39,646 bases of DNA from Enterobacteria phage IME10. The DNA is taken from the sequence record JN600960.1; one strand, written 5' to 3'. Below are positions 30,325-32,469 of this stretch, one piece after another. The position numbers and the translations under genes are program-made. Position 1 is the stretch's first letter, and every line of letters begins with the position of its first letter. The notes beneath the pieces are model-generated. The model worked only from the letters and a program-made list of their open reading frames with translations. It did not search any database and was not told the DNA's origin.

Positions 30325-30784
30325 TCAACGTAAGGCGTTCCTCGATATGCTGGCGTGGTCAGAGGGAACTGATAACGGACGACAGAAAACCAGAAATCAT
30401 GGTTATGACGTCATTGTTGGCGGAGAGCTATTCACTGATTACTCCGATCACCCTCGCAAACTTGTCACGCTAAACCCAAAACTCAAATCAACAGCCGCCG
30501 GACGTTACCAGCTTCTTTCCCGTTGGTGGGATGCCTATCGTAAGCAGCTTGGCCTGAAAGACTTCTCTCCCAAAAGCCAGGACGCTGTGGCACTGCAACA
30601 GATTAAAGAGCGTGGCGCTTTACCGATGATTGACCGCGGTGATATTCGTCAGGCAATCGACCGTTGCAGCAATATCTGGGCTTCACTTCCGGGGGCTGGT
30701 TATGGCCAGTTCGAGCATAAGGCTGACAGCCTGATTGCAAAATTCAAAGAAGCAGGCGGAACGGTCAGAGAGATTGATGTATGA
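30308..30784 (+). CDS. R: Endolysin R (lytic transglycosylase)
   Basis: 158 aa, lambda R-like ([24 protein letters not shown]). Confidence 0.9.
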
Positions 30785-31218
30785 GCAGAGTCACCGCGAT
30801 TATCTCCGCTCTGGTTATCTGCATCATCGTCTGCCTGTCATGGGCTGTTAATCATTACCGTGATAACGCCATGACCTACAAAGAACAGCGCGACAAAGCC
30901 ACATCCATCATCGCTGACATGCAGAAGCATCAACGTGATGTAGCAGAACTCGACGCAAGATACACAAAGGAGCTTGCTGATGCTAACGCGACTATCGAAA
31001 GCCTCCGTGCTGATGTTTCTGCTGGTCGTAAGCGCCTGCAAGTCGCCGCCACCTGTGCAAAGTCAACGACCGGAGCCAGCGGCATGGGCCATGGAGAAAG
31101 CCCAAGACTTACAGCAGATGCTGAACTCAATTATTACCGTCTCCGAAGTGGAATCGACAGGATAACCGCGCAGGTTAACTACCTGCAGGAGTACATCAGG
31201 ACGCAATGCCTGAAATAA
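30781..31218 (+). CDS. Rz: Spanin inner-membrane subunit Rz
   Basis: N-terminal TM anchor and coiled-coil; the N-terminal third is lambda-like, the C-terminal part diverges. Confidence 0.85.
30974..31165 (+). CDS. Rz1: Spanin outer-membrane lipoprotein Rz1, embedded in Rz in the +1 frame
   Basis: Embedded ORF with lipobox LVVSAC and a Pro-rich mature region. Confidence 0.7.
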
Positions 31219-31250
31219 TTTTTTTGCAAATCACAAAGTCAATTTAATGA

Positions 31251-31272
31251 GCCTCGCGATGCGGGGCTTTTT
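31251..31272 (+). terminator. Intrinsic terminator after the lysis cassette
   Basis: GCCTCGC-GAT-GCGGGGC (one G-U pair) followed by TTTTT. Confidence 0.5.
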
Positions 31273-31296
31273 ATTCCCAACTCTATAGGTAATTTT

Positions 31297-31797
31297 ATGA
31301 CCCAGCATATTGGCGTAAAACTGATTAACGCCTTTCCGATGACGAGACAGGCATATAACGATTTTCGTGGCTGGCAGCTTCCTGCCGGAGAAAACGGCGA
31401 GGACGAAGGCTATCTGGTTGAATATCTGGATGGCGGAAAACCTAACACCGATCGCTTTGATGGCTACGTTAGCTGGAGTCCAAAAGAAGTATTCGAAAAG
31501 GCTTATCGTCAGGTATCAGGGCTAAGTTTCGGCCTTGCCATCGAAGCACTCAAACTGGGTAAGAAAGTTACCCGTGCTGGCTGGAATGGGAAAGGCATGT
31601 ATCTGCAATTAGTTCAGCCACCGCAATCAGCCACTCCGAATGATTGGCGCTATGACGTTACATGTGGTGACGAGTATACATTTGTTCCTGGTGTAAAACT
31701 TCTTCCCTGGATTGGGATGAAGACTGCTGATTGTAAATTTGTTCCGTGGTTGGCGAGTCAGACTGATGTTCTGGCTGAAGACTGGCAAATCATTTAA
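31297..31797 (+). CDS. DUF2829-like protein (Tad2-like fold candidate) with an N-terminal extension
   Basis: C-terminal half [26 protein letters not shown] ... [32 protein letters not shown] resembles the DUF2829 family from memory. Confidence 0.5.
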
Positions 31798-32088
31798 CCA
31801 TGTAGGCATTACAAAGCCCATCTACGGGTGGGCTTGATAATGAAACCGTGATTTACATCCCCACAATCCGGGTATGTAAAAGATAGTTCAGGCGAGAACA
31901 GATTTAACTAAATCTGTGCACCACCAGTTACGGAAGTACAGCGACACAACCCAAGCCAGTAAGTGGGGAAATAACACTGGCAGCCACTGAAAGATGAACC
32001 TCCAGCCTTATGGCAAAAAAGATTCTTTGTGGTGGCGGACTGATGGAAAGACATCCTAATCAAGCAACCACGCCACAGGGGCATAATT

Positions 32089-32469
32089 ATGAACGACCAG
32101 CAAATCGAAAAAGAAATCGTTGAGAAAGGCAAAACCGCTCCGCGAGTTACCCCGCAGCACATCGAAGACGTGATTAAAAGCGAGCATTACTTTACTGCTT
32201 ATGATGGACGAAATGGTGCCATTTCCAGCAACGAATATTGTGGCAGGGAAAAACCAGAAGAAGGCGATCGTGATTTATCACCATTGAAGTTGCTCAATTT
32301 CTGCGTACTGGTGCTGAAGAATGGCTTCACCGTCACCGGAGAGAGTGCCTGTGCAAGTCCGGAAAATTTTGATGCAGAAATTGGTCGGAAGATTGCCAGA
32401 CAGAATGCTGTAAACAAAATCTGGATGCTCGAAGGTTACTTGCTGAAGCAGAAGCTAAGCGAACAGTAG
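32089..32469 (+). CDS. Phage gp49/Sf6 gp66-family protein
   Basis: 126 aa; NGFTVTGESACASPENFDAEIGRKIARQNA resembles the Phage_gp49_66 family from memory. Confidence 0.5.
   Translation: MNDQQIEKEIVEKGKTAPRVTPQHIEDVIKSEHYFTAYDGRNGAISSNEYCGREKPEEGDRDLSPLKLLNFCVLVLKNGFTVTGESACASPENFDAEIGRKIARQNAVNKIWMLEGYLLKQKLSEQ

Follow-up and report, generated by a model that had tools for sequence, protein, structure and literature searches.

The window analysed here, a stretch of 39,646 nt from Enterobacteria phage IME10 (JN600960.1), amounts to a practically complete genome of the P22/Sf6-like (Lederbergvirus) type. Checks against family libraries covered terS, the lysis genes and the accessory genes, while the remaining labels in Table 1 were assigned from size, order and synteny with P22-like phages. 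An ORF of 166 codons, the sole ATG ORF at its position, lies between the lysis and packaging genes. It is divided into an N-terminal module of about 72 residues, here called the N-module, and a C-terminal Tad2-like domain. The earlier note on this DNA had quoted three protein strings from the ORF, and both the ORF and the strings (residues 78-103, 150-163 and 56-70) are real. Its description of the slot, after the lysis genes and before the terminase, is also borne out, with Rz/Rz1 and a terminator-like hairpin on the 5' side and terS and terL on the 3' side.

Table 1 Features of the IME10 window discussed in the text (positions in nt of the 39,646-nt stretch)
Feature	Position	Strand	Basis or remark
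Tailspike-sized ORF	7774		Label from size, order and synteny with P22-like phages
DUF2264 protein, 488 aa	9887-11353	+	Between tailspike-sized and integrase-sized ORFs
Integrase-sized ORF	11398	-	Label from size, order and synteny
Holin	30001		5' of the 166-aa ORF
Endolysin	30308		5' of the 166-aa ORF
Rz/Rz1	30781-31218		5' of the 166-aa ORF
Terminator-like hairpin with T-run	31249-31269	+	Just after Rz/Rz1; pattern scan; -15 kcal/mol, z -3.3
Two-module protein ORF	31297-31797	+	Sole ATG ORF there, 166 aa (ORF list)
N-module	31297-31515	+	aa 1-73 of the 166-aa ORF
Tad2-like domain	31516-31794	+	aa 74-166 of the 166-aa ORF
Hypervariable β2-β3 insertion of the Tad2 domain	31615-31707	+	aa 107-137
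Stable hairpin without T-run	31814-31835	+	After the stop codon; -20.6 kcal/mol, z -4.3
Acb4-family gene (Sf6 gp66-like, 126 aa)	32089-32469	+	PF13876, E 1.4e-33, 115.7 bits against a cut-off of 27
DUF2560 protein, 80 aa	32573-32815	+	PF10834, PHROG 571; between Acb4-family gene and terS
terS	32845		3' of the 166-aa ORF; PF16677
terL	33317		3' of the 166-aa ORF
Portal-sized ORF	34817		Label from size, order and synteny with P22-like phages
Coat-sized ORF	37907		Label from size, order and synteny with P22-like phages

The terminator-like hairpin is located 28 nt 5' of the ATG. In a DNA alignment of the four phages IME10, Kapi1, Huey and Louie it is conserved, and the DNA common to all four starts there. 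The second hairpin is likewise conserved in Kapi1, Huey and Louie and closes the cassette. The 166-aa gene sits as a hairpin-bracketed accessory cassette with lysis genes on one side and packaging genes on the other. No sigma-70-like promoter was found on the plus strand between Rz and the ORF (31220-31296), yet the 75%-identical Kapi1_043 is reported to be the highest-expressed prophage gene.

The next gene downstream begins about 290 bp 3' of the 166-aa ORF and matches PF13876, published as the Acb4 (anti-CBASS) sponge family. Its product gives a weak direct match to SPO1 Acb4 itself (9e4w, E 0.02), and its counterpart in phage Huey is annotated as "anti-CRISPR protein". Because this PF13876 gene adjoins the 166-aa ORF, the two genes together would form, as far as family membership tells, a small two-gene anti-signalling islet in the lysis-packaging accessory slot. 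Sf6, HK620 and many P22-like phages share the DUF2560 gene that follows, which is another candidate for an accessory gene of the slot. Elsewhere in the genome, the gene of the DUF2264 protein occupies what looks like a moron position.

The C-terminal half of the 166-aa protein had been assigned to DUF2829 in the earlier note, with an HMM search and a comparison with solved structures proposed as checks; both turned out positive. PF11195 ("Tad2-like") matches residues 77-166 over profile positions 2-73 of 73, far above chance (86.5 bits against a gathering cut-off of 25, E 1.8e-24). A phmmer search of the PDB sequences retrieved ModTad2 of Myroides, SPO1 Tad2, HgmTad2/AcrIIA7 and SptTad2 at E-values of 2e-16 to 2e-11 (9eib, 8v3e, 8sme, 8kbi, 8wjd). 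The full-length AlphaFold2 model, built with an alignment of 50 homologues, has a pLDDT of 85, and in the Tad2 domain it contains helices at 78-86 and 155-159 and strands at 91-93, 102-106, 138-142, 148-150 and 163-165. The model superposes on the Tad2 crystal structures. Foldseek retrieved 24 Tad2 chains from the PDB at E ≤ 2e-5 with probability 1.00 and target-normalised TM-scores of 0.58-0.83 (0.7-0.83 for 8smf, 8sme and 9eib), and no match other than Tad2 was found for the model in the same database. Sequence and predicted fold agree in marking residues 74-166 as a clear Tad2 domain.

The Tad2-like reading extends to the ligand pocket. Contact residues reported in the primary papers for SPO1 Tad2 (W25, N26, I63, T65, D67, H71, W73, S76, T78, D79) and for HgmTad2 (W21, N22, G23, M76, A78, T82, V84, W87, L88, S90, T92, D93) were transferred to the IME10 protein via a MAFFT alignment. 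The IME10 protein is identical at eight of the ten SPO1 Tad2 contacts (W25, N26, T65, D67, W73, S76, T78 and D79) and at 10 of the 12 HgmTad2 contacts, including W21, N22, G23, W87, L88, S90, T92 and D93. The differences are methionine for SPO1 I63, valine for SPO1 H71 and lysine for HgmTad2 T82. In IME10 numbering, the pocket comprises W96, N97, G98, M141, T143, D145, W151, L152, S154, T156 and D157. W96, N97, W151 and D157 are invariant in all 50 homologues and most other contact positions are invariant or nearly so; the chief exception is the position of HgmTad2 T82 (K147, found in 29 of the 50). Because so many contacts are identical and these four residues are invariant, the gcADPR pocket is intact.

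We consider it likely that the C-terminal domain forms a Tad2-type tetramer sequestering ADPR signals made by the TIR proteins of Thoeris. By analogy with the solved relatives, the Tad2 module (residues 74-166) would assemble as a homotetramer, and its inter-protomer pockets would sequester 1''-3' gcADPR (3'cADPR) produced by Thoeris TIR proteins, possibly together with related ADPR signals. Activation of a ThsA-type effector would thereby be prevented, and Thoeris would be inhibited. Diverse Tad2 homologues did block a signalling defence in published experiments, four of five in one test and most of 18 in another. The published ligands of Tad2 homologues vary widely, however (3'cADPR, His-ADPR, N7-cADPR, cGG, cGAMP, cUMP), so that homology does not fix the exact target of the IME10 protein.

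The most variable part of the protein is the insertion between strands β2 and β3 of the Tad2 domain. In the four-phage DNA alignment, IME10, Kapi1, Huey and Louie are almost the same in the N-module and on both sides of the Tad2 insertion, whereas the stretch coding for residues 107-137 is unalignable among the IME10/Huey, Kapi1 and Louie alleles. Among 50 homologues, the mean pairwise identity is 0.13 in the insertion versus 0.70-0.73 elsewhere in the protein. A search of 5,426 complete E. coli genomes found the first ~300 nt of the gene in 45 of them, at 90-96% identity and with the matches ending there; the IME10 insertion allele is present in none of the 5,426. The insertion is a swappable hypervariable cassette, exchanged in one piece between genes that are otherwise nearly the same. 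It is reasonable to infer that a second specificity is tuned by such exchange, and since the cassette is swappable and hypervariable, such a specificity would vary by allele and would not be predictable.

An insertion of this kind also raises the question of whether the main ligand could be a cyclic mononucleotide or dinucleotide (c-di-GMP, cGAMP, cUMP), in which case the Tad2-fold sponge would act mainly on CBASS or Pycsar or, if expressed from the prophage, on host c-di-GMP signalling. Published work has shown that HgmTad2 and SptTad2 bind cGG and cGAMP via their β2-β5 insertion and that MoTad2 binds cUMP at the interface used by their second pocket. The IME10 insertion is long (~31 aa) and turns over rapidly, and the reported rank of the Kapi1 homologue as highest-expressed prophage gene in lysogens would suit the host-signalling variant. 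The IME10 insertion is nevertheless unlike those of HgmTad2 and SptTad2. In the alignment, the residues of the HgmTad2 cyclic-dinucleotide pocket (R31, L36, S47, F70, N85) have no counterparts in the IME10 protein, and residues 111-129 of the insertion have a pLDDT below 50 in the full-length model. Because the insertion is modelled at such low confidence, a second pocket is speculative. The gcADPR pocket, moreover, is intact and invariant across the family, which argues for selection on that pocket. We therefore regard a cyclic nucleotide as an unlikely main ligand.

The C-terminal domain also matches chains that were deposited as AcrIIA7 or "Inhibitor of Type II CRISPR-Cas system" (8kbi, 9kzr), and the orthologues in Huey and Louie carry the GenBank label "anti-CRISPR protein", from which one might take the IME10 protein for an AcrIIA7-like Cas9 inhibitor. 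The enterobacterial hosts of this phage group possess type I CRISPR systems and are not known to have type II-A. The label itself is a homology transfer from AcrIIA7, and Li et al. failed to reproduce inhibition of SpyCas9 by HgmTad2 (AcrIIA7) and homologues either in vitro or in vivo. In the view of Yirmiya et al., DUF2829 proteins counteract Thoeris and not CRISPR. An anti-CRISPR function is highly improbable in our view, and sequestration of Thoeris signals is the reading that we retain for the Tad2 domain.

The N-terminal extension had been called unusual in the earlier note, and the protein twice the usual size. Neither description holds, because the architecture recurs in thousands of homologues. 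A search of 5.8 billion proteins gave 7,957 matches. Each of the best 120 aligns over about 100% of the query, and their sources are Escherichia, Klebsiella, Salmonella, Citrobacter, Burkholderia and Paracoccus. The named proteins among these 120 are "DUF2829 domain-containing protein", and one so named in E. coli is 98% identical. PHROG 872 matches the full length of the protein (E 1.1e-68), and phage Huey has a 97%-identical locus with both accessory genes annotated as "anti-CRISPR protein". Rather than being unusual, the two-domain form is a large and old family, represented by PHROG 872, N4 gp49 and Kapi1_043. This family is already annotated in the databases as DUF2829, Tad2-like or "anti-CRISPR". 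Kapi1_043 has been described as having the highest expression of all Kapi1 prophage genes in lysogens and was proposed to be Tad2-like and anti-Thoeris (PMC12922286, 2026). The Tad2 half is ordinary, and the new information is in the N-module, residues 1-73.

That the N-terminal region is of no known nature, as the earlier note had put it, agrees with our searches: sequence and profile searches with residues 1-73 gave zero matches in Pfam, NCBIfam, PADLOC and the PDB, and a literature search found no paper naming or characterising the module. Modelled alone, it reaches a pLDDT of 93.8 and consists of three strands (residues 10-14, 38-43 and 57-62) and two short helices (17-24 and 63-69). Two known families were compared with it. 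Sequestin (PF21825) gave no match to the N-module at E ≤ 1, and its all-helical fold of 60-80 aa differs from the three β-strands predicted here. Lockin, an elongated β-rich protomer that forms hexamers, is reported in none of the INPHARED phage genomes, whereas the N-module occurs in 133 INPHARED records and has no PDB match; this comparison with Lockin is by description only. We also considered that the N-module could be a divergent Acb4, an idea that arose from a 12-residue string in it resembling "CASPENFDAEIG" and from PHROG 9467, which joins the two. This was rejected, as the hhalign probability of the N-module against the Acb4 profile is 0.2% and the module has no Pfam match; PHROG 9467 is a fusion of an N-module and Acb4.

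The N-module alone, searched against 1.84 billion cluster representatives, matched 1,586 clusters at E ≤ 1e-3 and 849 at E ≤ 1e-10, in which it is N-terminal, C-terminal, in the middle or stand-alone. It is present in phage N4, in crAssphage and in Clostridium, Vibrio, Acinetobacter and Pseudomonas phages. Among the best 150 of the 1,586, a Pfam scan found Tad2 in 51, Sequestin in 37 and Acb4 in 20 proteins, so that about 100 of these 150 also carry Tad2, Sequestin or Acb4, and the order is free. Architectures were counted in the same 150 by local HMMs and cluster assignment: N-Tad2 (49) and N-Sequestin (26) were followed by N-Acb4 (8), Acb4-N-Sequestin (7) and Acb4-N (5), a further 7 had other triple or reversed orders, including one Tad2-N, and 48 had an N-module without recognised partner. 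A RyR-like partner stands beside the N-module in one member. Examples are Vibrio phage 41E34.2 for the combination with Tad2, Clostridium phage CP51 and gp41 of the prototypical crAssphage for Acb4, and Acinetobacter phage SH-Ab15599 and one Pseudomonas jumbo phage for Sequestin. Sequestin was itself discovered through its fusion to Tad2 and Acb4, as published. Because no Pfam model of the N-module exists, Pfam-based fusion surveys missed it. One N-module and Tad2 protein of 354 aa (P0182) has its Tad2 domain interrupted at residues ~102-310, a break that coincides in position with the hypervariable insertion. The interrupting segment probably bears the AP2 and HNH_3 domains that Pfam reported among the best 150, and the interruption may be a homing-endonuclease insertion.

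For four stand-alone N-module genes the contig continues beyond the gene. Directly 3' of one of them, which encodes 80 aa, comes a separate Tad2 gene (L012, 3001-3491). The end of a second one, encoding 98 aa, overlaps the start codon of a Sequestin gene on three contigs (L016, 1472-2007), and for the other two no recognised sponge neighbour was found. Stand-alone N-module genes beside Tad2 or Sequestin genes are split versions of the fusions.

Across all partner contexts, conservation reaches at least 90% at about 28 of the 73 N-module positions, and about 17 of these are polar or aromatic (K8, R17, Y20, N21, R24, W26, E32, D36, E42, Y43, D45, N50, Y57, S59, W60, S61, Y70). As a whole, the N-module is not more conserved than its neighbour, with a mean pairwise identity of 0.73 versus 0.73 and 0.70 for the two Tad2 flanks (50 homologues). 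An activity of its own is suggested by the four unrelated sponge partners in any order, the stand-alone genes and the near-invariant positions. It is quite possible, if short of an even chance, that the N-module is an autonomous binder with its own activity, directed for example at a further signal or at a host protein. Somewhat more tentatively, we propose that it represents a new and very widespread anti-defence family, a further immune-signal sponge or a defence-protein binder, which serves as a hub of multi-sponge fusions.

RyR Tad, gp68 of Pectobacterium phage CB1, was described in a preprint of June 2026, in which its N-terminal domain is said to be of unknown function, the ligand sits in the C-terminal domain, and the crystal structure contains a dimer with swapped β1 strands to which the N-terminal domain contributes (bioRxiv 10.64898/2026.06.04.730250). 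The PDB copy used for the searches above does not include this structure. Aligned with our N-module profile by hhalign, residues 4-65 of gp68 gave a probability of 95.2% (E 2.5e-8, 61 columns, 36% identity), and hmmsearch gave 17.6 bits with a conditional E-value of 2.5e-7. A Foldseek search of BFVD with the N-module model found the RyR-domain protein of Yersinia phage TG1 (probability 1.00, E 0.013, 34% identity), which the GenBank note on CB1 gp68 calls similar. Profile and model comparisons both indicate distant homology between the N-module and the N-terminal domain of RyR Tad. Most likely, by analogy with this distant relative, the N-module dimerises by β-strand swap, and the dimer would resemble that in the RyR Tad crystal.

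Dimerisation could be all that the N-module does. It would then be a dimerisation or assembly scaffold that stabilises or cross-links sponge oligomers and has no ligand or target, a view in keeping with the strand-swapped dimer of RyR Tad, with the position of the ligand in its C-terminal domain and with the fact that most N-module occurrences are fused to or directly beside a sponge gene. It also accords with the only experiment on this module, in which the N-terminal domain of gp68 alone had no anti-type-I-Thoeris activity (bioRxiv 10.64898/2026.06.04.730250). That domain is divergent, however, as it does not possess many of the residues that are invariant in the main N-module family, nor R17, R24, W26 and the DGGxxN loop; its inactivity therefore says little about this family. 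The benefit of a scaffold is also unclear, since Tad2, Acb4 and Sequestin oligomerise unaided, and there are stand-alone N-module genes without a recognised sponge neighbour. In addition, the polar and aromatic residues conserved over all partners and positions go beyond the usual need of a fold or an interface. A pure scaffold is quite possible too, though slightly less likely in our estimate than an autonomous binder.

What the locus means differs for the two halves of the protein. With the Tad2 half, a further anti-Thoeris sponge is predicted for a P22/Sf6-like enterobacterial phage, next to an anti-CBASS gene of the Acb4 type. Annotation can benefit from this, as the labels in current use ("DUF2829", "anti-CRISPR protein" and "hypothetical") say little or are probably incorrect. 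That the insertion is exchanged block by block points to a natural mechanism of specificity swapping. The N-module matters more, being present in N4 gp49, crAssphage gp41 and about 1,600 protein clusters and joined to four unrelated sponge folds. The lead rests on guilt by fusion, the argument that also led to Sequestin. Should the target of the N-module be a signal or a defence protein, the module would constitute a new family of immune antagonists, and if it is an anti-defence family of its own, the IME10 gene, N4 gp49 and crAssphage gp41 would each neutralise one extra signalling pathway. If it is a scaffold, sponge assemblies would need a higher-order organisation.

Compared with known systems, the Tad2 domain of the IME10 protein has the Pfam family and the fold in common with SPO1 Tad2 (Gp34.65; 8SME/8SMF) and ModTad2 of Myroides (9EIB), at ~41-43% identity in Foldseek structural alignments and 45-49% with MAFFT, and the pocket motifs WNG and W-x-x-S-x-T-D are found in all of them. 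SPO1 Tad2 and ModTad2 are single-domain proteins of 88-89 aa, whereas the IME10 protein has in addition the N-module of 73 aa, and its β2-β3 insertion is longer than theirs and unrelated to them. HgmTad2/AcrIIA7 (8KBI-8KBM) also has a long insertion between core strands, but the insertion sequences are unrelated and HgmTad2 has no N-module. Among the two-domain relatives, Kapi1_043 (MT813197) is 75% identical to the IME10 protein with an identical N-module and lies likewise in the slot after Rz, while its insertion cassette differs. N4 gp49 (EF056009) combines an N-module and Tad2 like the IME10 protein, as both local profiles match it (E 9e-30 and 2e-26), and again has a different insertion cassette. 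The Acb4 gene beside it, gp48, mirrors the IME10 pair in opposite gene order, but the N4 pair occupies the vRNAP-proximal hotspot of a lytic schitovirus and not a lysis-packaging slot.

The multi-sponge fusions (Acb4-Tad2 of Pm86, Sequestin-Tad2, and Acb4-Sequestin of Ab09 gp59) follow the same design principle as the IME10 protein, in which one polypeptide strings together small oligomeric anti-signalling modules; the partner module in IME10 is neither Sequestin nor Acb4. RyR Tad has a homologous N-module fused to a gcADPR sponge domain, although its sponge is a helical domain similar to RyR Repeat12 and that of IME10 is Tad2.
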